Both the position numbers and the translations under genes were made by a program. Below, piece after piece: positions 1 to 14,287 of a stretch of 64,000 nucleotides of DNA (position 1 is its first letter; each line of letters begins with the position of its first letter). Source of the stretch: a virus (taxonomy: Duplodnaviria; Caudoviricetes); IMG/VR virus record IMGVR_UViG_3300005611_001698, positions 1 to 64,000 of that record. The stretch is one strand, 5' to 3'. The notes beneath the pieces were generated by a model that saw only the letters and a list, made by a program, of their open reading frames with translations, did no database searches and was not told the origin of the DNA.

Positions 1-495
1 ATAAGTCTCGTGACACACCATACCCTGGGTAAATAATCCATCAAATGGCTCTGTTAAGTTTAAATTTATATTATTGTAAGAAAGTGCATTCATAAAAAAT
101 CTTGAATAAAGAAGATGCAGTATTGCATGTTCAACTCCACCAATATATTGATCAACAGGCATCCAATATTTTAAATCTTGTAAATCATACCCATAACTAT
201 CTTTATTAGGTGAACAAAACCTTAAAAAATACCAAGATGAGTCCACAAACGTATCAAGTGTATCAGTCTCTCTTACAAGTTTCTTTCCATCTAATGTTAT
301 ACTTTTCCAATTTTCATCAACATCAAGTGGATTTCCCGATGTTTTAAATTTGTCTATTTTGGGCAATTTAACAGGCAACATTTCTTTTGGAATTTTTACA
401 GGATTATTTTTTTCATCATAAGCAATAGGAATTGGACAACCCCAATATCTTTGACGAGAAATACCCCAATCTTTTAATCTAAAATTAATTTTTCT
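1..495 (-). pseudogene. leuS: Internal fragment of bacterial leucyl-tRNA synthetase (no start; runs off the window edge); probably non-phage chimeric DNA
   Basis: Manual minus-strand translation (not in the ORF track): [21 protein letters not shown]...[21 protein letters not shown]...[25 protein letters not shown]...[17 protein letters not shown], all LeuRS signature segments. The DNA is very AT-rich. Confidence 0.9.
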
Positions 496-1156
496 TTTCT
501 TCTTCTGTTCTAGGAATACCTTTATTCCACGGAACAACACCTTTTCTTTTTTCGCTCATAGATTGCAGAGCTTCTTGTGAAAATATCCCCGTCATACCTT
601 TATTCCAAACAACATTATTTTTATGCCATTCTTTATGACCCATTCGCATTTTCATTTTTTCCTCTTCAGTCCTAGGAATACCCTTATTCCAAGGAACTTG
701 TCCTTTATTCTTTTCTTTTAACTTTTGTTTTGTTTCTTCGCTGTGTTTTTTACCAATCCAAGGATGTGGTTGATTCTTCCAAGTTTCTGCTGTCTTTTGC
801 TTTAAAAGTTCTTTTGTTTCTTCTGTGTGAGTTTTTCCATAAAAGGGATTTTTTTCACCTATCATATCATAAAAGATAAATTTTTTAGAAGTTTGTTGTG
901 CTTTATTTGCAAAGTGTGGATTTTTTCCTACTTCATAAAATTCGTGAAGAAGTATTTCATCTGCTATTGCTTCTTCCCTAGTTTTATAGTCACTTCTTAA
1001 AATGATTTTATGAGATGGATTAAAATTTTTATCACTAAAACTTCCAAAGTAATTTACATCTTCTTCTGGTAAGCAATTACAACTTCTGCTACCAAAATAA
1101 CCCATACCCCATTCTTCATAAGAATAGTATGTATAGTGGTACTTCTTGTTAGACAT
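485..1156 (-). CDS. Putative homing endonuclease (GIY-YIG-like N-terminus, NUMOD3-type repeats); C-terminus possibly truncated at the junction
   Basis: [17 protein letters not shown]-terminus; repeats [26 protein letters not shown] and two copies of [13 protein letters not shown]. Confidence 0.75.
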
Positions 1157-1267: not shown

Positions 1268-2005
1268 CTATCTGGACCTATCCATATAGCAGTGTGCCCT
1301 CTGCCCATCAGCCAAAACAAAATGAAAAAAGATTTGATGATAATAAAGTTCAGTTTCTGAAGTCTTTTTACCAAACAGTTTCTTATTCTTCTTCTTTTGT
1401 ACACCAGGCATCGGGTCTCTCCAATGTGGCCTCTCACAACCCTTGTAGACCATTCCATCACCTGGTTTTAAGATGACAGATCTATTTTCTCCAGGAACCA
1501 AAACTTGAGTTTTCTTTTTATCTGTGTATTGGTCTGGAGTTTTTATGTGTATTGGCCAATCAGCATCCTTACCTTCTAGGTTGGTGCTGACATGAACTGA
1601 TACTGAAATCTCACATGCATCACGATCAGCATGACGAGTCAGTTCCTGACCAGGGAAGTAATACCGATCATAGTAGTAAGTATTATACAACTTACGACCG
1701 ATGATTTCCTCCAGTTTCATACGAATACCAGAGTGAATCGCACGATATTGTGGGTGCCAATAACGAGATGTAGAACCTTCAACCTGCTGCTCTACAGGAA
1801 CATGATTAAAGTGTTCTGGGTTCTTATCCCAATAGTTATACTGACCCTTTTGTTCGGGAACTGGGTGATAAAGTTCTTCAGCATCCCAAAGATCTTTAAC
1901 TACCAGATATCCATTCTTATCAAAATCTTCATTACGAGTCCAGGCAGTTCCAGTGTTTTGCCTCTCCTGCATCATCAGTTGCAGTTCGTTCATTTGTTCT
2001 GCCAT
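1268..2005 (-). CDS. 2OG-Fe(II) oxygenase superfamily protein
   Basis: LTRHADRDACEISVS (HxD), LKPGDGMVYKGCERPHWR (distal His), QIFFHF. Confidence 0.75.
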   Translation of the reverse strand: MAEQMNELQLMMQERQNTGTAWTRNEDFDKNGYLVVKDLWDAEELYHPVPEQKGQYNYWDKNPEHFNHVPVEQQVEGSTSRYWHPQYRAIHSGIRMKLEEIIGRKLYNTYYYDRYYFPGQELTRHADRDACEISVSVHVSTNLEGKDADWPIHIKTPDQYTDKKKTQVLVPGENRSVILKPGDGMVYKGCERPHWRDPMPGVQKKKNKKLFGKKTSETELYYHQIFFHFVLADGQRAHCYMDRSR

Positions 2006-2013
2006 TTTCTACC

Positions 2014-2634
2014 TCACTTCCAACGGGGTCCAACAGTCCATCCAACGATAGACTTTCGGGTTCCTTTTGTGACTTTCAAAACTCGGTGTTGTGTGCGGGA
2101 GTCAAACAATACAATCGTGCCACGCTTACGGGGAACAATATAAGAGTTGCCTGCTTCATCCAGCAGTTGCACATTACCACCCTCATAATCATCAGGGTCA
2201 GAGAGTTGCATCGCAAAAGATAGTTTACGAACCATCTCAATATTCTCATTCACAAAATCATTAGCGAGACCTTCTTGACGATTGCCTACTGATTGTGGTT
2301 TGTATTGAGTGGCAAGTCCTGCATCATTGTGCCATCCGTAGAACTGACCTTCACCATATCGGGTGTATTGCATTGATTCTCCATCAATACACCGCAGATC
2401 ATACAAGAAGTTCTCACGGTTTGCTCTTTGAATATAGTGCCACAAGAAACCACCGACCCAATGAGTCGTTGGAATCCAAGCATTTTGTGAGTTACGCTTG
2501 TCTTTATTCAGGGCATCTCCATGAAGTTTGGAGTCTCCCATTTGTTCATCAAACTTTTCCGAAACATCCCGTTCAATAATGTCTACAATATCTTCTGGTA
2601 GATCCGAGTAGTACCACACGCTCTGGAAGGCCAA
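2014..2634 (-). CDS. PKHD-type 2OG-Fe(II) oxygenase / prolyl-hydroxylase-like protein (TTG start)
   Basis: FYGWHND, RKLSF..QLSDPDDYEGG, FDSRTQHRVLKVTKGTRKSIVGW; AGGAGA RBS upstream. Confidence 0.85.
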   Translation of the reverse strand: MAFQSVWYYSDLPEDIVDIIERDVSEKFDEQMGDSKLHGDALNKDKRNSQNAWIPTTHWVGGFLWHYIQRANRENFLYDLRCIDGESMQYTRYGEGQFYGWHNDAGLATQYKPQSVGNRQEGLANDFVNENIEMVRKLSFAMQLSDPDDYEGGNVQLLDEAGNSYIVPRKRGTIVLFDSRTQHRVLKVTKGTRKSIVGWTVGPRWK

Positions 2635-2693: not shown

Positions 2694-3647
2694 TTATGGA
2701 GTATATCTGATGACAACTATACCAGATCCGCCATTACCACCGCTACCACTGACATCACCACCACCACCTCCACCACCACCACTATTAGTGGTGCCAGCAG
2801 ATCCATTACCACCACCGCCACCTCCAGTGGCAGCACCGTTACCTCCACCTCCAGAACCTCCAGCTGCAGGACCATTTCTAGATCCACCGCCACCGCCTGC
2901 AAAATATCCGCTTAATGGTGAAAGAGCAGGAACACCAATCAATGAACCAGTATAGGCAGGGAACTGTGATCCAACACCACCGTAAGTGTCAGAACCTGGA
3001 CCACCAGCACCACCGGCACCACCACCGCCGCCACCACCATTGCTCGCTCCGCCACCTCCAGAATTTCCTTGTGCTGTTGGAGATATACCATCCGGAGATG
3101 TAACTGCGGATCCTCCTCCTCTCTCTGTGCCACCACCACATCCACCGCCACCGGAACCACCATTTGCTCCTGGTTGATTAGCAGGCGATACGCTTTCAGA
3201 TCCTCCTCCTCTACCACCACCAGTAGCTACAACTAATGTTCCAATACTACTATCACCACCATTTGTTGCTGTTGATGGCTGCGGAGCACCAGTTCCTCCA
3301 GGACCAACTGTTATTGTATGAGAACCGGTAGGCAATGTTAATGATGAAATATTTCTAACACCTCCGGCACCTCCGCCTCCACCATCATCAGCACCTCCGC
3401 CACCACCACCGGCAACAACAAGAACCTCTACACTTTTTTCCGATCCTATTACAGTAAAAGTTCCAGGTGAAGTAAATGTGTGATATTTATAACCGTTTCC
3501 TGGTTCTAATCCATCAACATTTCCACCAGATGCTGAGGCGGTCACTCTTGAACTCTGAACATCACCTCTTAGGGATAAGTCAGTATCTTTACTAACACCA
3601 AGAAGTTTACTTACAGTTCTTGCGAGTGATGATTTGATTGGAGCCAT
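2694..3647 (-). CDS. Glycine-rich domain protein (putative adhesin/receptor-binding tip), single domain
   Basis: ASGG..YKYHTFTSPGTF..VEVLVVAGGGGGG..YFAGGGGG..GGSGIVVIRY architecture. Confidence 0.75.
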   Translation of the reverse strand: MAPIKSSLARTVSKLLGVSKDTDLSLRGDVQSSRVTASASGGNVDGLEPGNGYKYHTFTSPGTFTVIGSEKSVEVLVVAGGGGGGADDGGGGGAGGVRNISSLTLPTGSHTITVGPGGTGAPQPSTATNGGDSSIGTLVVATGGGRGGGSESVSPANQPGANGGSGGGGCGGGTERGGGSAVTSPDGISPTAQGNSGGGGASNGGGGGGGAGGAGGPGSDTYGGVGSQFPAYTGSLIGVPALSPLSGYFAGGGGGSRNGPAAGGSGGGGNGAATGGGGGGNGSAGTTNSGGGGGGGGDVSGSGGNGGSGIVVIRYTP

Positions 3648-3650
3648 ATA

Positions 3651-4013
3651 TCAAACCTCCTTATCACCAGTTACCATGAAATTAACATGTGTTGCTGCCA
3701 ATCCAGTAACATTTCCTGTTCCTACAACCAACTGATCACCAGTTGATTCCAACACAATCGGATATGATGGTTCTAATAATATCGTCTCACCTGCATTTAC
3801 ATCAACATCAAAGATTTTATTTGTTGGTCCACTCGTAATACCAGAAGGACAATAATACACCTGTGCAGTTCCAGTACCAATACCCGTTCCAGCAGCATGG
3901 CAAATAATAGATTTCACATAAATCTTTTTGTCACTGGTAACCGTAACGATTCCTACGGATGTACCAGCACCAACTTGATGAACATCAGATAATTTTCCTC
4001 TATTAAGTGCCAT
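3651..4013 (-). CDS. Small beta-rich virion protein, putative fibre-adhesin adaptor (family 2)
   Basis: Resembles 9278..9685 (MALNRGKL/MGLKRTKL; ETILLEPSYPIVL/ETFFYEMNYPLVL); has its own late promoter. Confidence 0.6.
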   Translation of the reverse strand: MALNRGKLSDVHQVGAGTSVGIVTVTSDKKIYVKSIICHAAGTGIGTGTAQVYYCPSGITSGPTNKIFDVDVNAGETILLEPSYPIVLESTGDQLVVGTGNVTGLAATHVNFMVTGDKEV

Positions 4014-4042
4014 GACTTATACTTTTTAGTTATTTAGTAAGA

Positions 4043-4432
4043 TTAACCAGCACCATATAACCAGGTGTCAAATTGATTCCAACTCTCAACACCTGTAAGT
4101 GCTGATCCATCACCTTTGAATGATGTGGCGGTTACAACACCAGAAACATTTACACCAAGTGCAGTAACAATACCAACAAACTCAGCTTGACCAGTTGCAG
4201 TAATTGTACCACCAACACCTGATGCACCAAACTCAATTCCAGATCTTGCAGTAATAATACCAACAGAATCAATATTAGTTACATCTTCATAAGTTAAAAC
4301 ACCACCAACAGTCATATTGCCAGTGACATTTGCCGTTGTCGCAGTTAAGACACCAGTGACAACTGCCCCAGTTGGAATACCAATAGGACCACCAGTTCGG
4401 TTTCTTATATTGTCAACGTATAACTGTGACAT
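4043..4432 (-). CDS. Short fibre-like virion protein
   Basis: GVLTYEDVTNIDSVGIITARSG and VVTATSFKGDGSALTG fibre motifs; N-terminus similar to 6979..7245. Confidence 0.7.
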   Translation of the reverse strand: MSQLYVDNIRNRTGGPIGIPTGAVVTGVLTATTANVTGNMTVGGVLTYEDVTNIDSVGIITARSGIEFGASGVGGTITATGQAEFVGIVTALGVNVSGVVTATSFKGDGSALTGVESWNQFDTWLYGAG

Positions 4433-4454
4433 CTTAGATCTTTCTAGTTATTTA

Positions 4455-6524
4455 TTAGGTGGGATATGCGATGAGAACAATACCGGAACCACCAGCACTA
4501 CCATCTATACCATTAGGTCCACTAGAACCACCACCAGATCCTGTGTTTATAATTGCTGCTCGACCTGCATAGTATGTGGGTGCATGAGGAATACCAGCTT
4601 TATTACTTCCACCACGTCCACCTCCTCCATATCCTCCATCTCCACCCCAGGTGTCATATGAAGATCCAGTGTGGGCTGCGTGATATCCAGCACCACCACC
4701 TCCTCCAAGGTATCCTCCACCTGCTGCTGGACCAGGCGTTCCATAAAATATCTCTGCCGCATCATTTCCAGGATCACGGAAAACAGTAGGTATCTGAATT
4801 CCATTTCCACCAGTGCCGTTAGGAGTATTTCCAGCACCACCAGCACCACCGCCCCCGCCGCCAGTGCCACCACCACTATAAACTAGCCCTGTAGCTCCAT
4901 TATTTCCTTGAGGTCCACCGCTGCCTGCGTTTGGACCCGAAAGTCCTGGTTGTATCAGTGCTCCACCACCACCTGATCCAAGAGGAACTGTTGCACCAGA
5001 TCCTAAAGGACTTCCTGGTGGTGGTCCTAAAGACCCACCTCCTCCGCCACCACCACAAGTAACTGTTCCTGTGGGGAAAGCAACTGTTGTACTGCTACCA
5101 TTACCTGGTGATGCATCTTGTCCAGCAAGACTACTTTGTTGGGGAAGACCAGAACCACCCGCAGCAACAGTAACCGCAAAACTAAACGGTCCCGAAAATG
5201 GAGTAGTGCTTGTTACATATCCACCAGCTCCACCGCCACCACCATGTTGGACACCACCTCCTCCTCCACCACCGATTGCGACATAAGTGACGGTTGTGCT
5301 ATCAGACCACTCTGATGTGGAAGCAAAAGTTCCAGTTGCATAAAATGCATGGATTGTATAAGAACCTTGAGTACTTATGACACCACCAGTTGCTTTTTGA
5401 TCATTAACTAGAGATCCACCAGGTCCGGGAACTGCATATCTAATAACAATCGCACCACCACCACCAGATCCCCCACTGAATGAAGCACCATCCCAGGCAC
5501 CTCCACCACCGCCACCACGACTTTGTGCAGCATTTTGACCGTTTCCACCACTACCATCACCGCCAACTGTGTAACCACTGGTAGATGCTGAAGGACCTCC
5601 CTGTCCTTGTCCTCCTACACGGGTTGGATAACCACCCATTCCTCCTCCACCACCGCCGGCAAAAAGAACAGGTAAAGTTGGTCCAAAAATGATTGTATGT
5701 GGATCTGCATTACCACCACTACCACTAGCTGGTGGTGGACCAGCACTACCAGCACTACCAGCGCCACCGCCTCCGGCACCACCATATGGAGATGAATTTG
5801 AACCAGCACCTCCAGCATAACCTTGTGTTGGGGCAGGACTACCGCCAGGAGTCTTATTAGCAGGTCCAGCAGCACCACCGCCAGCACCACCGTTTCCACC
5901 ACCACCAGAACCACCAGATTGACCTGCTCTATCAGTCGCACTGGAACCATTATTTGCTCCTCCTCCACCACCACCTTGAGCAGGTGCTGTTTTTGAACTA
6001 GGTGGTCCTATAAATGATTCTCCACCAGGTGTTCCTGCAGTGGGATTGCTCGATGATCCTGCTCCACCTGCTCCAATTACAATTGGATATGTTGTTCCTT
6101 CACTAACTGGCATAGTGGATTCTGCAGTTCCACCACCACCTGGACCCTCTGGCATGGAAGTTCTGAGGCCTCCTGCACCACCTCCACCACCTCCAAGGGT
6201 CGCACCGCCTCCGCCGCCACCAACGACAAGATAATCAACCGAAGAAATACCTGCGCCTGGCTCTACGACGAAAGATCCACTTGCTGTAAATGTATGACTA
6301 ATATAAGTTTGTGGTCCAACTGCATATTCATGAACAACTCCACCAGTTGCTTTTGTTTGTGGTGGTGGTGGTGTCCCTGGAGCATTGTAAATGTCTCCTT
6401 GTCTCTCAAAATATCCATGAGCAAATAAATCTAATATACCACCACCAACAGCACCATCTGCACCACCAGGAGTAGAATCTCCTTTATCCTGTGATAAACC
6501 TATCCTTCTGCCGAGATATCCCAT
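4455..6524 (-). CDS. Glycine-rich protein with two tandem Gly-rich domains (putative adhesin)
   Basis: Two KATGG..H.F...G.F...Y...GGGGGG units; ends GGSGIVLIAYPT. Confidence 0.75.
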   Translation of the reverse strand: MGYLGRRIGLSQDKGDSTPGGADGAVGGGILDLFAHGYFERQGDIYNAPGTPPPPQTKATGGVVHEYAVGPQTYISHTFTASGSFVVEPGAGISSVDYLVVGGGGGGATLGGGGGGAGGLRTSMPEGPGGGGTAESTMPVSEGTTYPIVIGAGGAGSSSNPTAGTPGGESFIGPPSSKTAPAQGGGGGGANNGSSATDRAGQSGGSGGGGNGGAGGGAAGPANKTPGGSPAPTQGYAGGAGSNSSPYGGAGGGGAGSAGSAGPPPASGSGGNADPHTIIFGPTLPVLFAGGGGGGMGGYPTRVGGQGQGGPSASTSGYTVGGDGSGGNGQNAAQSRGGGGGGAWDGASFSGGSGGGGAIVIRYAVPGPGGSLVNDQKATGGVISTQGSYTIHAFYATGTFASTSEWSDSTTVTYVAIGGGGGGGVQHGGGGGAGGYVTSTTPFSGPFSFAVTVAAGGSGLPQQSSLAGQDASPGNGSSTTVAFPTGTVTCGGGGGGGSLGPPPGSPLGSGATVPLGSGGGGALIQPGLSGPNAGSGGPQGNNGATGLVYSGGGTGGGGGGAGGAGNTPNGTGGNGIQIPTVFRDPGNDAAEIFYGTPGPAAGGGYLGGGGGAGYHAAHTGSSYDTWGGDGGYGGGGRGGSNKAGIPHAPTYYAGRAAIINTGSGGGSSGPNGIDGSAGGSGIVLIAYPT

Positions 6525-6536
6525 TACTTATTCTCC

Positions 6537-6950
6537 TCAGCTAATTTCTTCGTATGCAACAACTACGTTGATACTTCCTGCATTTGGTTGACAATAAACT
6601 CCAAGTGATCGGTCTTCTTCTAAGTATATTGCGTTCTCTTTACCAATAATAACAACAGAGGAGAATGTTGGAACTGCAATCGTTGATGCAATTGAAACTG
6701 TATTTGCTGCTCCAGTTGCAGTTGCTTTGTCGTAAATCTCTACTGTCACTCCTGTGGTATCTCCAACACCAGCAGCAACCAAACTATTAATCTTTAATAC
6801 CTTTCCACTACTAGCAGCATTAGAAACGATGGTGGTTACACCTGAGGTATTTTTGGGAACAGCAACCCCATCACCACCAGTATTGATTCCAGCAATAAAT
6901 GTTGATATGCCCGTGATAGTCGCAACATTTACAATATTCGGTGCAGCCAT
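6537..6950 (-). CDS. Small beta-rich virion protein, putative adaptor (family 1)
   Basis: MAAPNIVNVATITG..KINSLV..VPTFSSVVII..IYLEED..VVAYEEIS; has its own late promoter. Confidence 0.6.
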   Translation of the reverse strand: MAAPNIVNVATITGISTFIAGINTGGDGVAVPKNTSGVTTIVSNAASSGKVLKINSLVAAGVGDTTGVTVEIYDKATATGAANTVSIASTIAVPTFSSVVIIGKENAIYLEEDRSLGVYCQPNAGSINVVVAYEEIS

Positions 6951-6978
6951 TTCCTACAATACCTCTTTTGTTTATTTA

Positions 6979-7245
6979 TCAACCGAACACCATAGACAAA
7001 GCAATTGCCTTGCCTGGTGATGTTTTGCCATCAATCGCAGTTTCTAATGCACTACCAGATGCTGCAGCACTTGCTTCTGATGCAGTTCCTGTTACATTAC
7101 CAGTTACATTACCAGTTACATTACCAGTTAAATCACCACTGAAACTCGTTGCAGTTGCTACACCAGTAACGACGGCTCCTCTGGAAAAACCAACGGAACC
7201 GTCATCATCCTTATTTACAATATCATTAACTTGTAACTTTGACAT
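6979..7245 (-). CDS. Short fibre-like virion protein
   Basis: GAVVTGVATATSFSG, GNVT repeats, C-terminal GKAIALSMVFG. Confidence 0.7.
   Translation of the reverse strand: MSKLQVNDIVNKDDDGSVGFSRGAVVTGVATATSFSGDLTGNVTGNVTGNVTGTASEASAAASGSALETAIDGKTSPGKAIALSMVFG
7091..7126 (+). repeat. 12-bp tandem repeat (gttacattacca x3) encoding GNVT
   Basis: Read directly from the sequence. Confidence 0.85.
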
Positions 7246-7268
7246 GAGTTTATGTTTTTAGGTATTTA

Positions 7269-9266
7269 TCAGGTTGGGTATGCGATGAGAACGAGACCAG
7301 AACCACCACGAGCTCCTCCAAGTGGTGTTGCCGTAGTTCCACCAGCTGCACCACCACCAGTATTTGCCATGCCATTAAAACCATAAACTGGATATCTTGG
7401 ATCAGCAGGGTTTCTACAACCACCACCACCGACACCACCCACACCAGTAGCACTTGCACTATATGGTGTTGGTCCTAATGGAGGAGATGCTTGTGGGAAT
7501 GGAGTATAAACTGTTCCTGCTCCACCACCTGCTACAAAATAACCAGCAGTTGCACTAGGTCTAAATGGGTGATCTGGGAAGTTGTCATATTGGAATCCAT
7601 TTGGATCTCTAAATGTAGTTGGAAGTTGAACACCAGTTCCACCAGTAGAGTTTGGATTGCCCGCACCTCCGGCACCACCACCTCCACCACCAGTTGCATC
7701 ACCTGGTGTTCCATTACCACCTGGATGTCCCCATCCAGAAGTTGGGGTAGCACCTACTGTTCCTGGATATGGAGATCCAGTACCAGAAGCTCCAGTGCTT
7801 CCACCTCCTCCTTGTGTTCCACCAGCACCTGATGCACCAGGTTGAGCACCTCCTTCTGGTCCACTTCTAGAAGAACCACCACCAGGAATAGCAATTGGGA
7901 TTGTACCAATACTTGATGGTGAAGCTATTGGAGATTTTGCATTTCCTCCTGCACCAACAGTTATTGTGTAATTTACACTAGATCCAATGGGGGTAGTTCC
8001 AGTTCTGTATCCACCAGCACCACCTCCACCAGTAAATGCTCCACCACCTCCACCAACTACAACATACTCACATGTTTCTGAGAAAGTGCCTGGTGTTTGG
8101 AATGTACCAGTAGAAGTAAAGGTATGGATTGTCTTACCACCATAGAAACTAATGGCACCACCACTTGCTTTTGCATCTCCTGTGTCTACCGTACCGATTT
8201 GATAACGAACTACTACGATACCGGAACCACCGAATCCTCCACCTCCGTTTGTGTGGGGAGCTCCACCCCCACCGCCACCTGTGCTTGTACCCCCACTTCC
8301 ACCACCAGTTGATGATCCGTTCTCACCACTAAATAAGGCACTTCCTCCTCCGGTTCCAGGAGTGCCTGGTGGTTGTGATCCTGCTCCACCACCACCTCCT
8401 ATTCCTCCATTACCAGCAGTTGCTGCTCCGCCGATACCTGCTGAACCACCGCCACCGCCTGCAAAATAATAGGGACTTCCTAAAATAGTAGATTCAGCTC
8501 CTGGACCACCTGCACCACCTGTAGCAGGAGTTCCACCAGTTCCGTTCGTACCAGCACCGCCAGCTCCTCCTCCACCACCAGCACCATGCTGCCCAGACTC
8601 ACTTCCTGAACCACCTGGAAATCCTTGTGTTATTGGATATGGTGATGGGAGTGGAACAGCAGAGAGAACAGGAGCAGGAGTTGATGGATTATATCCAAAT
8701 CCACCACTACCTCTCAAAGATCCACCACCAGAACCACCAGGTCTTCCATTAACTTCTGGACTACCAGACTGTTCATGAGCACCGGCGCCACCACCATAAG
8801 AAATGACTGTACCAAATACTGACTGATTTCCATTAGTTCCTACTGATGGCGAGGATGGAGCTCCTGCACCACCCCCACCAACAGTGACTGTATAAGAACC
8901 TGGAGATGTGCTTACAGGAAATCCAGTTGCAGTTCTAAATCCACCGCCACCCCCACCACCAGATACTACACTACCTCCACCACCACCGCCAGCAACCACA
9001 AGATACTCAACAGTATCACCAAAAGTACCAGGTTCTGTTACATCAAAAGTTCCTGATGTAGTGAAGATGTGTGCTCTGTAAACATTACCAGGTCCTGGTT
9101 CAGTATAATCACTAACGACACCACCAGTTGCTGTTAGTCCTTGTGTTGGTCCAACATAGTTAGTTCCTCCACCACCAGCACCAAAAGTCTGTCTAAAATA
9201 CTCTAAAAGGTGTCCGTCTGATTTGTTAAGACCTGGACCTCTACTCTGTGATGATCTTGCTCCCAT
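7269..9266 (-). CDS. Glycine-rich protein with two tandem Gly-rich domains (putative adhesin)
   Basis: Same architecture as 4455..6524; ends GGSGLVLIAYPT. Confidence 0.75.
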   Translation of the reverse strand: MGARSSQSRGPGLNKSDGHLLEYFRQTFGAGGGGTNYVGPTQGLTATGGVVSDYTEPGPGNVYRAHIFTTSGTFDVTEPGTFGDTVEYLVVAGGGGGGSVVSGGGGGGGFRTATGFPVSTSPGSYTVTVGGGGAGAPSSPSVGTNGNQSVFGTVISYGGGAGAHEQSGSPEVNGRPGGSGGGSLRGSGGFGYNPSTPAPVLSAVPLPSPYPITQGFPGGSGSESGQHGAGGGGGAGGAGTNGTGGTPATGGAGGPGAESTILGSPYYFAGGGGGSAGIGGAATAGNGGIGGGGGAGSQPPGTPGTGGGSALFSGENGSSTGGGSGGTSTGGGGGGAPHTNGGGGFGGSGIVVVRYQIGTVDTGDAKASGGAISFYGGKTIHTFTSTGTFQTPGTFSETCEYVVVGGGGGAFTGGGGAGGYRTGTTPIGSSVNYTITVGAGGNAKSPIASPSSIGTIPIAIPGGGSSRSGPEGGAQPGASGAGGTQGGGGSTGASGTGSPYPGTVGATPTSGWGHPGGNGTPGDATGGGGGGAGGAGNPNSTGGTGVQLPTTFRDPNGFQYDNFPDHPFRPSATAGYFVAGGGAGTVYTPFPQASPPLGPTPYSASATGVGGVGGGGCRNPADPRYPVYGFNGMANTGGGAAGGTTATPLGGARGGSGLVLIAYPT

Positions 9267-9277
9267 GTCTAATCACC

Positions 9278-9685
9278 TCAAATATCTGTGTCGCCAAGGA
9301 TTTGGTAGTTGATAGCACTACCAATACCTGCTCCTCCAACTTCTGCTGCTGGTTGTGTAACCTCTACAATAATCTTCTCTCCATCAGTCAGCACCAGAGG
9401 ATAATTCATCTCATAGAAGAACGTTTCATTGGATGCAATATCAACTCTTGCTAATCTATATGCCGTCTGTCCTACAGAAATATCACTTACACCATTTGGA
9501 TACACATAAAGTGAGGAGGTTGCGGTTGCTAGTCCAGTATTATGCATCACCACACCACGCAAATAAGTGGTTGATGCAATACCAACACCACCAGCAGTTG
9601 GAGTAGTGCCAACCGTCAAGATACCAACGGTATTAATACCAGTAACTGCTTGAATTCCCAGTAATTTAGTTCTTTTAAGTCCCAT
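9278..9685 (-). CDS. Small beta-rich virion protein, putative adaptor (family 2)
   Basis: YLRGVVMHN..ETFFYEMNYPLVL..ILGDTD, paralogous to 3651..4013. Confidence 0.6.
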   Translation of the reverse strand: MGLKRTKLLGIQAVTGINTVGILTVGTTPTAGGVGIASTTYLRGVVMHNTGLATATSSLYVYPNGVSDISVGQTAYRLARVDIASNETFFYEMNYPLVLTDGEKIIVEVTQPAAEVGGAGIGSAINYQILGDTDI

Positions 9686-9707
9686 TGGTATATACTTTTA
9701 GAGTTAT

Positions 9708-10277
9708 TTAGTTAAACAGAGCTGCATCAAGTTCATTAAAACCTGCTGGAATATTTAATCCTGTCAGTCCTGATCCATCTCCACTAAATGAAGTTGCGGT
9801 AACAACTCCTGCTGTTACGTTACCAAGAGTAGAAATACCAGCAACAACGAGAGAACTGGTGCTGACATCAGCAGTGGTAATACCAGAACTAATAGAAATA
9901 TCAAGTTGATTGCCACCTACATCAGTAACAGCAGCACCAACAAAGTTTAAAACATTAACACCAGTGCTTCTTACTGATGTGCCAGCAGAGGAAATACCAA
10001 GTATTGACTGTCCAATCGTAAAGGCTTTATATGCAACGATTTCAACAGAATCTCCACTTTGTACTGCTGATGTGATTCCAACTACACTGCCATCTGTGGC
10101 ACTATAATCAGAAACATTAAGCAACTTAACACCATTTAAATATACATCCAAATATCCTGGCGTATATCCAACATTAAATGTAAAGTTTGTTTGAACTCCT
10201 GTTGGATTGTAGACCTGACGGGCAATGATAACTGGCGTGTTGTCAGGATTATTGCCAATATATCCGTATTTTGCCAT
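9708..10277 (-). CDS. Fibre-like virion protein with a QT.F..Y..LDVYLNG beta domain
   Basis: GYIGNNP start, QTNFTF..YTPGYLDVYLNGVKL..GDSVEIVAY, VVTATSFSGDGSGLTG; start overlaps the upstream stop. Confidence 0.7.
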   Translation of the reverse strand: MAKYGYIGNNPDNTPVIIARQVYNPTGVQTNFTFNVGYTPGYLDVYLNGVKLLNVSDYSATDGSVVGITSAVQSGDSVEIVAYKAFTIGQSILGISSAGTSVRSTGVNVLNFVGAAVTDVGGNQLDISISSGITTADVSTSSLVVAGISTLGNVTAGVVTATSFSGDGSGLTGLNIPAGFNELDAALFN

Positions 10278-10828
10278 CAGCTAACTCCTCTAAGGAAACT
10301 CAGACTTACGTCAAGTGCATTATCAGTGTTAGTTGAAACGGAAATCGTGCTACCAATTCCAACAACTAACTTACCACCATCAGAAATAACAAGTGATGAA
10401 CCCTCAGGAATAGGTGCATCATGAATGATATTAATATGCTCGTTATTATGTTGAGAAAGAATGACAGATGCTCTTACTTGTCCAGTTGTATTATTGGAAA
10501 GAGTCCCGCCAACAAGAATACTCTTCTCAGTTGGCGTATCAATACTTGTTACAGTATGAAATCCAACGATTTGACCGGTAAGAGCAGTTGTATTAGATGA
10601 AGTTTGATCAACAGTGATTTGACCACTGGTTCCAAAGTTAGAAGCAACGTCAACAGATTTAACTCTCGTACCACCAATAAAGTTTGGATGGTCAACTAAC
10701 ATATCAGCACTTACGTTAAACGTAGAAATGTTAGTAATCGTAGTTGCCTGAGCACCGATTGAAGCAGTGGTGACCGAACTGGTAACACCTATTGCCCTAG
10801 ATGATGCATTTGCAAATGACTCTGCCAT
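10277..10828 (-). CDS. Small beta-rich virion protein, putative adaptor (family 1)
   Basis: IPEGSSLVI..KLVV..LDVSLSFL resembles the C-terminal half of 6537..6950. Confidence 0.6.
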   Translation of the reverse strand: MAESFANASSRAIGVTSSVTTASIGAQATTITNISTFNVSADMLVDHPNFIGGTRVKSVDVASNFGTSGQITVDQTSSNTTALTGQIVGFHTVTSIDTPTEKSILVGGTLSNNTTGQVRASVILSQHNNEHINIIHDAPIPEGSSLVISDGGKLVVGIGSTISVSTNTDNALDVSLSFLRGVS

Positions 10829-10851
10829 TGTTCTTTAATTCCTTTGTGTAT

Positions 10852-11943
10852 TTAGCCGCCAAGGGCAATAGCAAGACCGATTGAAATACCAGGTTGAATT
10901 GTTACTGTTGTGATTCCAGATGTTACGTCAGTAATCGCAGTAATCGCAGTTCCAGTTGTTGATTTAAAATCAATCGTGGAAGTTGCTGTACTAATAACGT
11001 TAGTATCACTTCTAATACCAATCGTGCCACCACCAGAAGCAGTGACTCCTGTTAATCCAGCACCACTACCACTAAATGAAGTTGCAGTAACGATACCAGT
11101 AACATTTAAACCAGCAATAGAAAGAGTCGCAATACCAAGATTAGTAAGAGTATCGCCAGTTCCAACAACAACAAGTTCACCAACATCACCAAGAGTAGAT
11201 ACTGTTGCTAAACCAGATACTGCAAGATTTGTAATGTCAGTGTCAGTTGCATCAAGATATGTAATCGTACCGACGCCAGTAATGTTACCATTTCTAGCAG
11301 TAAACTCATCAAATACTAAGTCATCAGTGACATAAAGATCACCACCAACATAAAGATCACTTTGGAAAGTACCAACACCAACAAAAGTAGATAAACCACC
11401 AACTCTTATATCACCTGAAATGTCTGCAAATGAGTTGATATCTACATTTGAAGCAAAAGTAGAAAATCCACTGACATTAAGATTATCTAACTCAGTATGA
11501 CCATCTACATCAATATCACTGTAAAATGTTGCAATTCCAATAACAGATAAAGAATCATTAAAAGTTGAAACTCCAACAAAAGTAGAGAATCCAGTGACTC
11601 TTACGTCTTTATCAAAAGTTACATTTTCATTAAATGTAGAAACTCCTGTTACCTTAAAGTTGGTAACAGAACTCATTCCAAGAACATTCAGTTCATTAGA
11701 AACAGTGGAAAATCCACTGACATTAATATTGTTATTAACTTGTACTTGGGAAAACGTTGCGTATCCAGTAACTCTTAAAAGAGACGATACAACATCCGTT
11801 GCTGCGATGGCACCTTGTACGTCAAGTTCGACCGTGGGCAGTGTGCTTCCAATACCAACCTTGCCAGTGGCAGAATCAGCAAAGATTTGGTTAGTATTAA
11901 CCTCTAAACCGTTCTTGACAACAAAATTTTTGTTAATTGCCAT
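10852..11943 (-). CDS. Tail/virion fibre protein
   Basis: MAINKNFVVKNGLEV start, repeated V.G.STF units, DVDGHTELDNLNVSG, VTATSFSG, C-terminal IGLAIALGG. Confidence 0.75.
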   Translation of the reverse strand: MAINKNFVVKNGLEVNTNQIFADSATGKVGIGSTLPTVELDVQGAIAATDVVSSLLRVTGYATFSQVQVNNNINVSGFSTVSNELNVLGMSSVTNFKVTGVSTFNENVTFDKDVRVTGFSTFVGVSTFNDSLSVIGIATFYSDIDVDGHTELDNLNVSGFSTFASNVDINSFADISGDIRVGGLSTFVGVGTFQSDLYVGGDLYVTDDLVFDEFTARNGNITGVGTITYLDATDTDITNLAVSGLATVSTLGDVGELVVVGTGDTLTNLGIATLSIAGLNVTGIVTATSFSGSGAGLTGVTASGGGTIGIRSDTNVISTATSTIDFKSTTGTAITAITDVTSGITTVTIQPGISIGLAIALGG

Positions 11944-13102: not shown

Positions 13103-14287
13103 TCAGACCCTCGTTATCGTGAAGTTGCCATTTCCAGTGTTTGATGCTGTTCCGAAAGAACCATTACTGATTTTAGATGGATGTAGATAACCAGATCCAC
13201 CACCACCAGCACCATCAGCACAACAACCATTATAAGGGTTGCCAGCAGCACCACCAAAATATCCACCACCGCCACCGCCAGCACCAGATCCACCTTGTAG
13301 AGCAGAACCGCCTCCAGCACCGCCAGTTCCAGCAGATGTTTGAGTTCCTCCTCCACCACCTCTTCCAGGAGCATTTCCTCCATTTCCACCATTTAGTCCG
13401 CCACCAACACCACCTACAGCAGGATCATTAGCACCACCACCACCGCCACCAGCAATGATAATAGCATTTGCTTGTGCTACTGTAGACTCAAAAAGGCCAG
13501 TAAATCCACCACCACCGCCGCCAGCGCCAGATCCTCCACCACCATTTCCACCACCAGAATAACCACCGGCACCACCAGTTACCCCAGCACCACCTAATCT
13601 TAGTTTATAGGATACCCCAGATTCAAATACAAAATCACCAGTAGCATTACCACCATTTCCACCAGCAACACTTCTTTCTATAGATGAACCACCGCTTGCT
13701 CCATTTGCCGTGAGTTTTGCTACAAAAGTTCCTCTTGGGATTAGAGTATATTCAATTCCAGCTGTAAATGCACTAAACGTAGATTCATCTGCTGACAGAT
13801 TAATTTCTGTAGTTCCATCAGTACCAGCAGGAGATAGATCAATTACAAATTCATCCGCAGGAACACCAGGAGTATCAGTATCTGGTTGAGATGTAATTGA
13901 TATAAGTGATTTTACAGATAATGTAACGGTATCAGAAGATAGAGGAGAATTGAGAGCTTCTGGTTGGAACGTTTGAATTCCAACTCTGGTTGAATCTGGA
14001 TAGAAAATAGCACGTTGAGTTATTTCTCTACCACTATCAGAAATATCGGTTAAGTTGGACAAAGTGAGTTGAGTTCCAACTCCTATTACACCAGTGCTAT
14101 CTCTCCACTCATATCCAAGAGTTCCAATTCCTGGAACGTAATAATTTACCGTAGCAATACCAGTTAAGGTAGTGGATCCAAGGTGGGCAATGGATCCACT
14201 TGATTCTGGTTGAGTTACATATGCAATGAAAGGTGGATTTAACCTTACATTAGTTTGAATCTTTCGGCAAAACGCTAAGGGACTCAT
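13103..14287 (-). CDS. Virion protein with an Ig-like segment and a glycine-rich domain
   Basis: YVTQP..YEW..LTLSNLT, ITSQP; IIIAGGGGGG..GGGGGGYFGG..GGGGSGY. Confidence 0.6.
   Translation of the reverse strand: MSPLAFCRKIQTNVRLNPPFIAYVTQPESSGSIAHLGSTTLTGIATVNYYVPGIGTLGYEWRDSTGVIGVGTQLTLSNLTDISDSGREITQRAIFYPDSTRVGIQTFQPEALNSPLSSDTVTLSVKSLISITSQPDTDTPGVPADEFVIDLSPAGTDGTTEINLSADESTFSAFTAGIEYTLIPRGTFVAKLTANGASGGSSIERSVAGGNGGNATGDFVFESGVSYKLRLGGAGVTGGAGGYSGGGNGGGGSGAGGGGGGFTGLFESTVAQANAIIIAGGGGGGANDPAVGGVGGGLNGGNGGNAPGRGGGGGTQTSAGTGGAGGGSALQGGSGAGGGGGGYFGGAAGNPYNGCCADGAGGGGSGYLHPSKISNGSFGTASNTGNGNFTITRV

Follow-up and report, generated by a model that had tools for sequence, protein, structure and literature searches.

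We asked what part is played by four small proteins in the fibre locus of a marine phage, each of which is encoded between a fibre gene and a downstream partner gene. A preliminary description of this DNA had proposed that they are adaptors of two families, which join fibre to partner in plug-and-socket fashion and covary with the termini that flank them. The window (the whole stretch of 64,000 nucleotides that was analysed) comes from a complete 194-kb T4-like cyanomyovirus, an ocean cyanophage. The locus at positions 2694-11943 holds eleven open reading frames, all on the minus strand, and every coordinate, terminus and motif quoted for them in that description was found in place. From upstream to downstream they are:

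10852..11943, minus strand: fibre363 (363 aa), N-terminus like baseplate-wedge/fibre proteins (phrog_8215, phrog_1469 and others), TATSFSG motif, F1-type hydrophobic tail ..IGLAIALGG
10277..10828, minus strand: putative F1 connector, long form (183 aa), phrog_26609 at 1e-35, alignment A2, jelly-roll match of its AF2 model; the gene overlaps the following one, stop to start
9708..10277, minus strand: bridging fibre, fibre189 (189 aa), F1-type start MAKYGYIG, F2-type tail ..FNELDAALFN, also a weak T7-fibre-like N-domain and TATSFSGDGSGLTG
9278..9685, minus strand: putative F2 connector (135 aa), phrog_20100 at 8e-46, alignment A1, eight-strand jelly roll in its AF2 model
7269..9266, minus strand: adhesin665, Gly-rich adhesin-like protein (665 aa), F2-type start MGARSSQSR, two Gly_rich_2 stretches, PF21722 at 4.5e-19, phrog_2295, weak match to phrog_863 (annotated 'tail fiber assembly')
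6979..7245, minus strand: mini-fibre fibre88 (88 aa), F1-type tail ..GKAIALSMVFG, which recurs in related loci
6537..6950, minus strand: putative F1 connector, short form (137 aa), phrog_26609 at 2e-6, own-genome profile match at 4.5e-29
4455..6524, minus strand: adhesin689, Gly-rich adhesin-like protein (689 aa), F1-type start MGYLG, PF21722 at 3.8e-16, phrog_2295
4043..4432, minus strand: mini-fibre fibre129 (129 aa), F2-type tail variant ..WNQFDTWLYGAG, shared with phage Bellamy (..WEVFDTWLYGGG)
3651..4013, minus strand: putative F2 connector (120 aa), phrog_20100 at 1e-35, own-genome profile match at 1.4e-30
2694..3647, minus strand: adhesin317, Gly-rich adhesin-like protein (317 aa), start MAPIKSSLAR, one Gly_rich_2, PF21722 at 1.1e-14, phrog_2295, phrog_863

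The TATSFxG motif is common to all four fibres and corresponds at the DNA level to a 45-nt repeat (D14). The three Gly-rich proteins contain 26-36% glycine and belong to PF21722, with scores of 69.8, 60.2 and 55.5 bits (cut-off 24.3); a PDB sequence search with them returned no match.

The four small proteins fall into two real families with two copies each, as had been proposed. F1 is phrog_26609, matched by 10277-10828 at 1.1e-35 over residues 1-183 and by 6537-6950 at 2.2e-6 over residues 5-129, and both copies were recovered from their own genome by the A2 profile. F2 is phrog_20100, matched at full length by 9278-9685 (8.1e-46) and 3651-4013 (9.9e-36); its ET, YP and GD motifs are invariant columns in alignment A1. 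These two families, both annotated as of unknown function, were the only PHROGs matches (threshold 0.01), and neither Pfam (E up to 0.1) nor NCBIfam (0.01) gave any. A comparison of F1 with F2 by hhalign found no homology between them.

Public data contain more than 6000 relatives of F1, 549 relatives of the short form were found in IMG/VR, and the hosts of the phages concerned include Synechococcus, Prochlorococcus, SAR11 and SAR116. The same three-gene arrangement recurs in SAR116 phage HMO-2011 (gp43/gp42/gp41) and pelagiphage HTVC203P (gp44/gp43/gp42), in both of which a tail ..GFA(V/I)AMAIAL is followed by F1 and then by a start MP(Y/F)IG, and in S-TIM5 (gp131/gp130/gp129; ..IIALSIALG, F1, MPHIGN). 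In S-SCSM1 (gp26/gp27) a tail ..PFILALGGN is again followed by F1. Distant F2 members, at about 30% identity, have upstream tails ..DSFLFG, ..LEMMLFT and ..DIWLFS, and in the two with a readable downstream gene a binding-type protein follows, one of them with Laminin_G_3. The strongest independent support is for F1, from its occurrence in distant phage groups; that for F2 comes from three distant metagenomic members.

The window alone offers two cases per family, which is anecdotal, and the pairing was judged on about 220 related IMG/VR loci together with cultured phages, by counting distinct cases and using other genes as controls. If flanking termini covary with the adaptor family, as the preliminary description held, then each family should keep its own tail and its own start across these loci. 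Independent events are fewer than these counts suggest, since most loci are related phages inheriting the whole cassette, but the pairing was far beyond chance: an F1-type tail (..AIAMAIAL, ..AIAMAIVFG, ..GLAIALGG) lay upstream of F1 in 95/110 cases against 5/1035 controls, and an F2-type tail ..D..LF(x) upstream of F2 in 40/44 against 5/1146. The five control genes with an F1 tail are all linked to F1, three at locus ends and two with a small gene between fibre and F1. Downstream, the start M..(Y/F)IG followed F1 in 83/96 cases (62/1028 controls), and M..(R/K)S.., on Gly-rich adhesins, followed F2 in 42/43 (38/1141 controls); one start downstream of F2, MSIKSTRIIG, matches both N-terminal patterns. 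No tail was paired across families in the roughly 220 loci. The gap between the upstream fibre gene and the connector gene was 18-34 nt in nearly all loci. The bridging fibre at 9708..10277 does combine a family 1 N-terminus with a family 2 C-terminus, and the series F1, bridging fibre, F2 is kept in 13 loci. There were exceptions: F1 in three loci (L009-L011) sits after a ..YNHLFS tail, the gene after S-SCSM1 F1 begins MQARKRFF, and the F1 homologues S-TIM5 gp007 and that of S-CBWM1 have no fibre gene after them.

The terminal peptides and the small proteins stay fixed while their partners vary. The ELDAALF tail is encoded by 20 DNA versions among 31 copies, with every Ala codon and most of the Leu codons in use, and anchored identity is about 0.5 over the terminal 6 residues and about 0.13-0.2 further in. 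Judged from these sequences, selection acts on the tails at the peptide level, and synonymous sites vary. The same last ~10 residues occur on unrelated shaft types, collagen-like ones included. Mean identity to the window copy is 73% for F2, 36% for the upstream fibres and 41% for the downstream proteins, and the F2 partners range from 82 to 854 aa upstream and from 186 to 721 aa downstream. By this comparison the connector is a conserved hub between variable partners.

Structure prediction suggested that F1 and F2 are each a single jelly roll. The AF2 model of F2 (9278-9685; pLDDT 75.6) is an eight-strand jelly roll, and that of F1 (10277-10828) is confident mainly towards the C-terminus (residue blocks 101-180 at 64-82), with low confidence in the N-terminal half. 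The best structural match of both models was 7dou, a trimeric phage cement protein, with Z of 9.4 for F2 and 8.3 for F1, within a range of 7-9.4 to many unrelated jelly rolls that is common among unrelated beta sandwiches.

Our preferred reading, to which we assign a probability of roughly 55%, is that F1 and F2 are stand-alone jelly-roll structural connectors in multi-protein tail fibres. F1 would recognise a hydrophobic A/I/L/M peptide at the C-terminus of the fibre encoded upstream, and F2 an acidic-amphipathic ..D..LF tail at the same place. Each would also offer a docking site to the product of the downstream gene, at its N-terminal region, which starts M..(Y/F)IG for F1 and M..(R/K)S.. 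for F2. What docks would be either a Gly-rich adhesin like gp38 or a further fibre segment. With address systems that are kept apart, the two families could be used in series. In the window phage, this series would run from the baseplate-linked fibre363 through F1, fibre189 and F2 to adhesin665, while fibre88, F1 and adhesin689, and likewise fibre129, F2 and adhesin317, would form separate mini-fibres. From the plug-and-socket description, the conserved three-part junction, the exclusive families and the serial order have stood; its physical side (binding with cognate preference, the match of surface to peptide, the stoichiometry and possible branching) is putative.

The main rival reading, which we consider unlikely but by some way the most serious, is that F1 and F2 are fibre-assembly chaperones which, like lambda Tfa, Mu U, P2 G, T4 gp38 and Pam3 gp25, are dedicated to the fibre of the gene directly upstream, at its C-terminal end, aid its trimerisation or its attachment to the next protein, and are then released or passively carried. 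Gene order and C-terminal-end specificity match the known chaperone pairs, the tight coupling between family and tail motif suits a chaperone equally well, and Pam3 gp25 grips its fibre by a beta-sandwich domain, a likeness to F1 and F2. Yet searches of Pfam, PHROGs and NCBIfam gave no match to chaperone families, and the AF2 models contain strands only, bar one 3-residue turn; the helical oligomerisation domain of Pam3 gp25 and Mu TFA is absent from them, with the F1 N-terminal half at low confidence. What ends the upstream fibres is a peptide of ~10 residues and not a complex distal domain, and a chaperone would not explain why the downstream gene has an N-terminal motif that goes with the family. 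The F1 member S-SCSM1 gp27, which lies between two fibre genes, carries the label 'virion protein' as its product name in the record; the S-SCSM1 paper describes mass spectrometry on CsCl-purified virions, with 45 proteins, 13 of them of unknown function. This label is weakened as evidence because some fibre chaperones, namely those of Mu and Ur-lambda, also stay in virions. Two natural fusions, each from a single contig in which assembly errors are possible, are also at odds with a chaperone: one (P0272) joins a fibre N-part to a C-terminal F1, and the next gene begins MAKGKGGFIG; the other (P0273) joins F1 to Gly_rich_2 in one frame and lacks an MGYLG-type docking region. A third apparent fusion (P0271) proved to be an artefact in which TAG was read as Q. 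One further protein (P0187) consists of F2-F2 and an extra domain. We take the virion label, the two fusions and the family-specific downstream motif to support a structural over a transient role, as far as gene sequences and records can speak to it.

It is less probable still that F1 and F2 form the knobs at the distal ends of the upstream fibres, as separately encoded lectin-like or TNF-like host-binding heads, and that the downstream proteins are independent virion parts sharing the operon. Among the jelly-roll neighbours of the models are ligands of the TNF family, carbohydrate-binding modules and the tip domain of a Bdellovibrio fibre. The annotation 'putative lectin' has been given to two F1 homologues, and the F1 homologues of S-TIM5 gp007 and S-CBWM1 with no fibre gene behind them would suit a knob, although the structural matches reach only middling Z (7-9). 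In a fibre, the receptor-binding tip usually varies most, whereas F2 varies least within its cassette, and both the family-specific downstream motifs and the fusion of F1 to a Gly-rich part speak against a terminal head. Very improbable is the idea that the gene ends are conserved as recombination joints at the DNA level or as expression signals, with the pairing reflecting cassette co-inheritance only and carrying no protein-protein meaning. A 57-nt repeat (D16) does cover, for each large Gly-rich gene, its end and the following spacer ahead of the mini-fibre, but there is no extended DNA identity around the connectors within the window, the F1 triad persists across phage groups that have no detectable DNA similarity, and the preservation of the tails as peptides under free synonymous variation largely refutes this idea.

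More tentatively, and with somewhat less confidence than the connector reading itself, we suggest that marine phages may share a general system of peptide-addressed connectors, to which F1, F2 and probably more sister families belong; it would extend over cyanomyoviruses, the podoviruses of the pelagiphage and SAR116 groups, and S-TIM5-like phages. No more than a C-terminal tail of ~10 residues and a short N-terminal address would then be needed to join any shaft to any cargo via a small jelly-roll hub. In serial or multiple fibres the assembly order would be dictated by orthogonal hubs, and host range could be rewired by swaps of whole proteins and not of domains. The hosts of phages with F1 are among the most abundant in the ocean, yet neither F1 nor F2 has a name, a Pfam entry or a structure. 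If they are connectors with short addresses, this would explain the presence of several different Gly-rich adhesins on interchangeable shafts. Such phages may then build and reshuffle their host-binding fibres from separate parts, a sequence-only rule would predict which fibre genes assemble together, and a compact natural plug-and-socket would be at hand for studying the rewiring of host recognition in laboratory phage-host pairs.

Among known systems, podophages GP4, VP1 and A1002 have chain-like fibres in which many small modules are docked on another protein by beta-sheet augmentation, but they use a long 'rope' protein with many dimers, to which nothing here corresponds in sequence or architecture. 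The T4 long tail fibre (gp34 to gp37, plus the adhesin gp38 in phages of the T2/T6/S16 type) is likewise made of several separately encoded proteins in gene order, with the small gp35 and gp36 at the segment joints and a Gly-rich adhesin at the tip; the downstream proteins here belong to PF21722 and match phrog_863. F1 and F2 resemble no named PHROG, Pfam or NCBIfam family; PHROG and Pfam searches gave no link to gp35 or gp36, though a remote homology may exist. S16 gp38 binds gp37 directly, whereas in the cassettes of the window phage a separate jelly-roll protein is interposed, and two orthogonal families are used several times in one locus. In the K1-5/SP6 adaptor and the anchor or branching receptor-binding proteins of Klebsiella phages, receptor-binding proteins dock non-covalently by short conserved N-termini and the modules are exchangeable. 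Those podovirus adaptors sit at the tail and are domains that resemble the N-domain of T7 gp17 or T4 gp10, whereas F1 and F2 are predicted to be free jelly rolls of ~110-180 aa that would sit at the distal fibre end and be addressed by a C-terminal tail peptide.

The virus record whose first 64 kb form the window is 194,408 bp long and was rated complete by CheckV. Among cultured phages the closest to it is Synechococcus phage Bellamy (Kyanoviridae), the DNA similarity being only patchy. All genes of the fibre region lie on the minus strand. Taken in the order of transcription, they are the gene for a fibre protein of 1991 aa (phrog_529), those for two Gly-rich proteins, the eleven cassette genes and two 2OG-Fe(II) oxygenase-like genes. 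The Bellamy fibre locus has the same layout with more numerous cassettes. A preliminary description had recognised two families of small proteins in the cassettes, and these correspond to phrog_26609 (here F1) and phrog_20100 (F2), PHROG families of unknown function with two window genes each, at 10277-10828 and 6537-6950 for F1 and at 9278-9685 and 3651-4013 for F2; all the termini and motifs it quoted were recovered at their positions. Profile searches recovered these four genes and no further F1 or F2 in the phage's own genome, and neither family has a match in Pfam or NCBIfam. Three large proteins downstream of the small ones carry the glycine-rich domain PF21722 (Pfam), with weak matches to phrog_863 ('tail fiber assembly') as well. 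The surroundings contain the following features.

Features in and around the fibre locus
1-540, minus strand: class I tRNA-synthetase fragment, LeuRS-like from a reading of the translation (PF00133 at positions 228-370, phrog_12710), running off the record start
485-1156, minus strand: NUMOD3 homing-endonuclease-like gene just upstream of the tRNA-synthetase fragment, with a 56-nt overlap
1268-2005, minus strand: neighbour of the 2OG-Fe(II) oxygenase gene, without a Pfam match
2014-2634, minus strand: 2OG-Fe(II) oxygenase, confirmed by Pfam, directly after the last adhesin gene
4438-4494 and 7252-7308: 57-nt direct repeat, 84% identity
11977-13101 and 13103-14287, minus strand: Gly-rich proteins upstream of the cassettes, with the ALK/LTK glycine-rich domain PF12810, not PF21722

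The two Gly-rich genes upstream of the cassettes have no putative connector gene in front of them. In each copy, the 57-nt repeat takes in the final codons of a large Gly-rich gene and the spacer preceding a mini-fibre gene; read on the coding strand, it contains TAATAAATA or GATAAATA. It could serve as a late-promoter-like signal starting each cassette; the T4 late-promoter consensus TATAAATA is not enriched within the window (4 matches found, 2.6 expected). At the far end, no N-terminal half of the tRNA synthetase is visible between the fragment and the oxygenase genes. In Bellamy, three genes with the annotation 2OG-Fe(II) oxygenase and one with that of ferrochelatase occupy the equivalent place (L001:2059-4495), and S-SCSM1 too has one 2OG-Fe(II) oxygenase among its baseplate and fibre genes. 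Such enzymes near fibre loci may modify fibre proteins.

Relatives of F1 number more than 6000. We compared loci from IMG/VR, 60 with F2, 2 with the long form of F1, 80 with its short form and 80 with a 108-aa podovirus form, calling co-directional genes and classing the small proteins by HMMs made from the window's copies.

Pairing of small-protein families with neighbouring termini (distinct 30-residue termini only; control, all other genes)
F1, upstream, hydrophobic tail (..AIAMAIAL, ..AIAMAIVFG, ..GLAIALGG): 95/110; control 5/1035
F1, downstream, start M.{0,7}[FYIV][ILV]G: 83/96; control 62/1028
F2, upstream, D.{2,4}L[FY] plus 1-3 residues: 40/44; control 5/1146
F2, downstream, start M.{2,3}[RK][SAGTN][STLFN]: 42/43; control 38/1141

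The proposal that flanking termini covary with family holds across phages at frequencies far above the controls, in counts that are not independent events, since most counted loci come from related phages; distant F1 triads (upstream tail, small protein, next protein's start) and divergent F2 members therefore weigh more. All five controls with an F1-type tail proved F1-linked, three lying at locus ends and two having a small gene between fibre and F1. In the loci compared the tail motifs never crossed: F2-type tails were not followed by F1, nor F1-type tails by F2. A single start downstream of F2, MSIKSTRIIG, matches both N-terminal patterns. Nearly all proteins downstream of F2 contain 26-36% glycine. 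The two families co-occur in 17 loci, and the series of F1, bridging fibre and F2 that had been pointed out in the window was seen 13 times. In L106 (2507-2998) and L139 (2772-3014) a small extra gene separates a fibre with an F1-type tail from F1, the triad being otherwise intact; the inserted proteins end in ..AIKYLRS and ..AIEYLRSKNGST, and these proteins may be mobile endonucleases.

The F1 triad was found again in phages without detectable DNA similarity to the window's phage. In the SAR116 podovirus HMO-2011, gp43 has the tail ..GFAVAMAIAL, gp42 (labelled 'putative structural protein') is F1-like and gp41 starts MPYIGQ; pelagiphage HTVC203P has a ..GFAIAMAIAL tail, then F1, then an MPFIGNQ start. 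In S-TIM5, a cyanomyovirus that is not T4-like, the tail ..IIALSIALG of gp131 precedes gp130, an F1 member (2.4e-16, HMM), and MPHIGN opens gp129, whose annotation reads 'tail fiber protein'; the 'virion structural protein' labels in S-TIM5 are those of its records. The long tail fibre gp26 of S-SCSM1 ends in ..PFILALGGN and is followed by the F1 member gp27 (3e-14). Even at only about 30% identity to the window's F2, three F2 members follow the tails ..DERDSFLFG, ..DLLEMMLFT and ..VRDIWLFS; where the next gene was readable its product is no Gly-rich protein, being a Laminin_G_3 protein after P0202 and a 241-aa protein without assignment after P0221. Downstream of the F1 triad in HMO-2011 (L064, gp41-gp29) and HTVC203P (L065, gp42-gp36) runs a long series of small fibre-like genes, several starting MPYIG or MAYIG and others M..L(K/N)(A/V)D.I, like the window's mini-fibres. 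The same connector may take their products as alternative cargos.

Some loci depart from these pairings. The F1 of L009-L011 is preceded by a ..YNHLFS tail and followed by an MSKRIASYIG start; the gene after S-SCSM1 gp27 starts MQARKRFF; no fibre gene follows S-TIM5 gp007, an F1 member after ..INSLIFG, and the gene after a weak S-CBWM1 homologue is not a fibre gene. The docking code of two families put forward in the preliminary description therefore stands as a strong tendency with sub-variants and not as a fixed two-letter system. Further connector classes may exist. The observation itself is confirmed, and its reading as a plug-and-socket arrangement is partly supported.

The AlphaFold2 model of F2 (alignment A1; pLDDT 75.6) is an eight-strand sandwich in which the nearly invariant first eight residues come out disordered. 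That of F1 is poor overall (pLDDT 56.9), with a more confident C-terminal half (64-82 in 10-residue blocks from 101 to 180). Structural comparison places both models with single jelly rolls. F2 comes closest to 7dou, the trimeric cement protein of phage KHP40 (Z 9.4; rmsd 3.0 over 109 aligned residues); for F1 this protein is fourth (Z 8.3), less than 1 Z unit behind the first (8.5). Such values are in a range commonly met and give the fold class, not the function. Next come TNF-family ligands, carbohydrate-binding modules and capsid jelly rolls. In the PDB, the F2 model had only weak Foldseek matches, to generic jelly rolls, and sequence searches with both profiles and with Gly-rich317, a downstream protein, gave no meaningful match; ESM Atlas neighbours were all unnamed viral clusters. 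The families share fold class and structural neighbours. Profile comparison by hhalign detected no homology between them (probability 0.75%, 8 columns aligned), but the F2 model matches the S-SCSM1 F1 member in BFVD (5.5e-5), so a distant common origin is possible, though unproven. Among P0254, P0257, P0187 and P0125, F2 is found tandemly duplicated in a single polypeptide and, once, with an insertion of about 90 residues, which may bear on its oligomeric state.

That the cassettes merely reflect DNA joints or co-inheritance we consider very improbable. It is the peptide of the tails that is conserved rather than the DNA: the 31 copies of ELDAALF are written in 20 different DNA sequences and the 44 of AIAMAIVFG in 24, with every Ala codon and most Leu codons in use. 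Identity anchored at the terminus is about 0.5 for F2 and 0.3-0.36 for F1 over the last or first six residues, and 0.11-0.2 further in, and identical final ten residues sit on unlike shafts (collagen-like GPT repeats, GDGSxLTN types and poly-Gly types among them). Relative to the window cassette of fibre189, the 135-aa F2 and adhesin665, F2 identity averages 73% (up to 95%), that of upstream fibres 36% and that of downstream proteins 41%, with partner lengths of 82-854 aa upstream and 186-721 aa downstream. A conserved F2 amid variable partners is what is expected of a connector and the opposite of a receptor-binding tip, which makes it improbable that the small proteins are terminal knobs.

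We favour the reading of F1 and F2 as connectors, at a probability of roughly 55%. A role as fibre-assembly chaperones is the less likely account: gene order alone points that way, and Pam3 gp25 holds its fibre by a beta-sandwich. The family-specific N-terminal address on the downstream gene would, however, be superfluous for a protein that only chaperones the upstream fibre. Against a purely transient chaperone stand also the short peptide, in place of an intertwined distal domain, in which the upstream fibres terminate, and the lack in F1 and F2 of a helical domain or a chaperone-family match. The record names S-SCSM1 gp27 'virion protein', a product name; mass spectrometry of CsCl-purified particles led its authors to 45 virion proteins, of which 13 have no known function, and their supplement, which lists ORF27, gives no peptide evidence for it. 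Fusions point the same way. P0272 joins a fibre N-part to a C-terminal F1, the next gene starting MAKGKGGFIG, and in P0273 F1 runs straight into a Gly_rich_2 domain, the MGYLG-type N-terminal region of adhesin689 being absent; these clean F1 fusions, each from a single contig (one a TARA scaffold in L234, the other a Logan contig in L233), are moderate evidence. P0187 has two F2 domains and one extra domain. A further candidate fusion of F1 and adhesin, P0271, is an artefact, translating only with TAG read as Q, and represents two genes. Co-folding three copies of the C-terminal 90 residues of fibre189 with three of F2, alignments supplied, scored 0.30 and 0.05 (mark 0.32), which leaves binding neither supported nor disfavoured.

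Multi-protein fibres with small joint proteins, such as T4 gp35/gp36, are established, as are Gly-rich tip adhesins such as gp38 of T2, T6 and S16, and receptor-binding proteins docked through an adaptor or anchor, as in K1-5/SP6 and Klebsiella phages. Our literature search, of incomplete coverage, found no description of a connector of the present kind. It differs from all these systems in being a free protein, predicted to be a jelly roll, of an unnamed family; in its putative place at a fibre's distal end; in the conserved addresses that flank it on both partners; in comprising at least two families that do not mix; and in its repeated use, both within a single locus and among marine phages of very different kinds.
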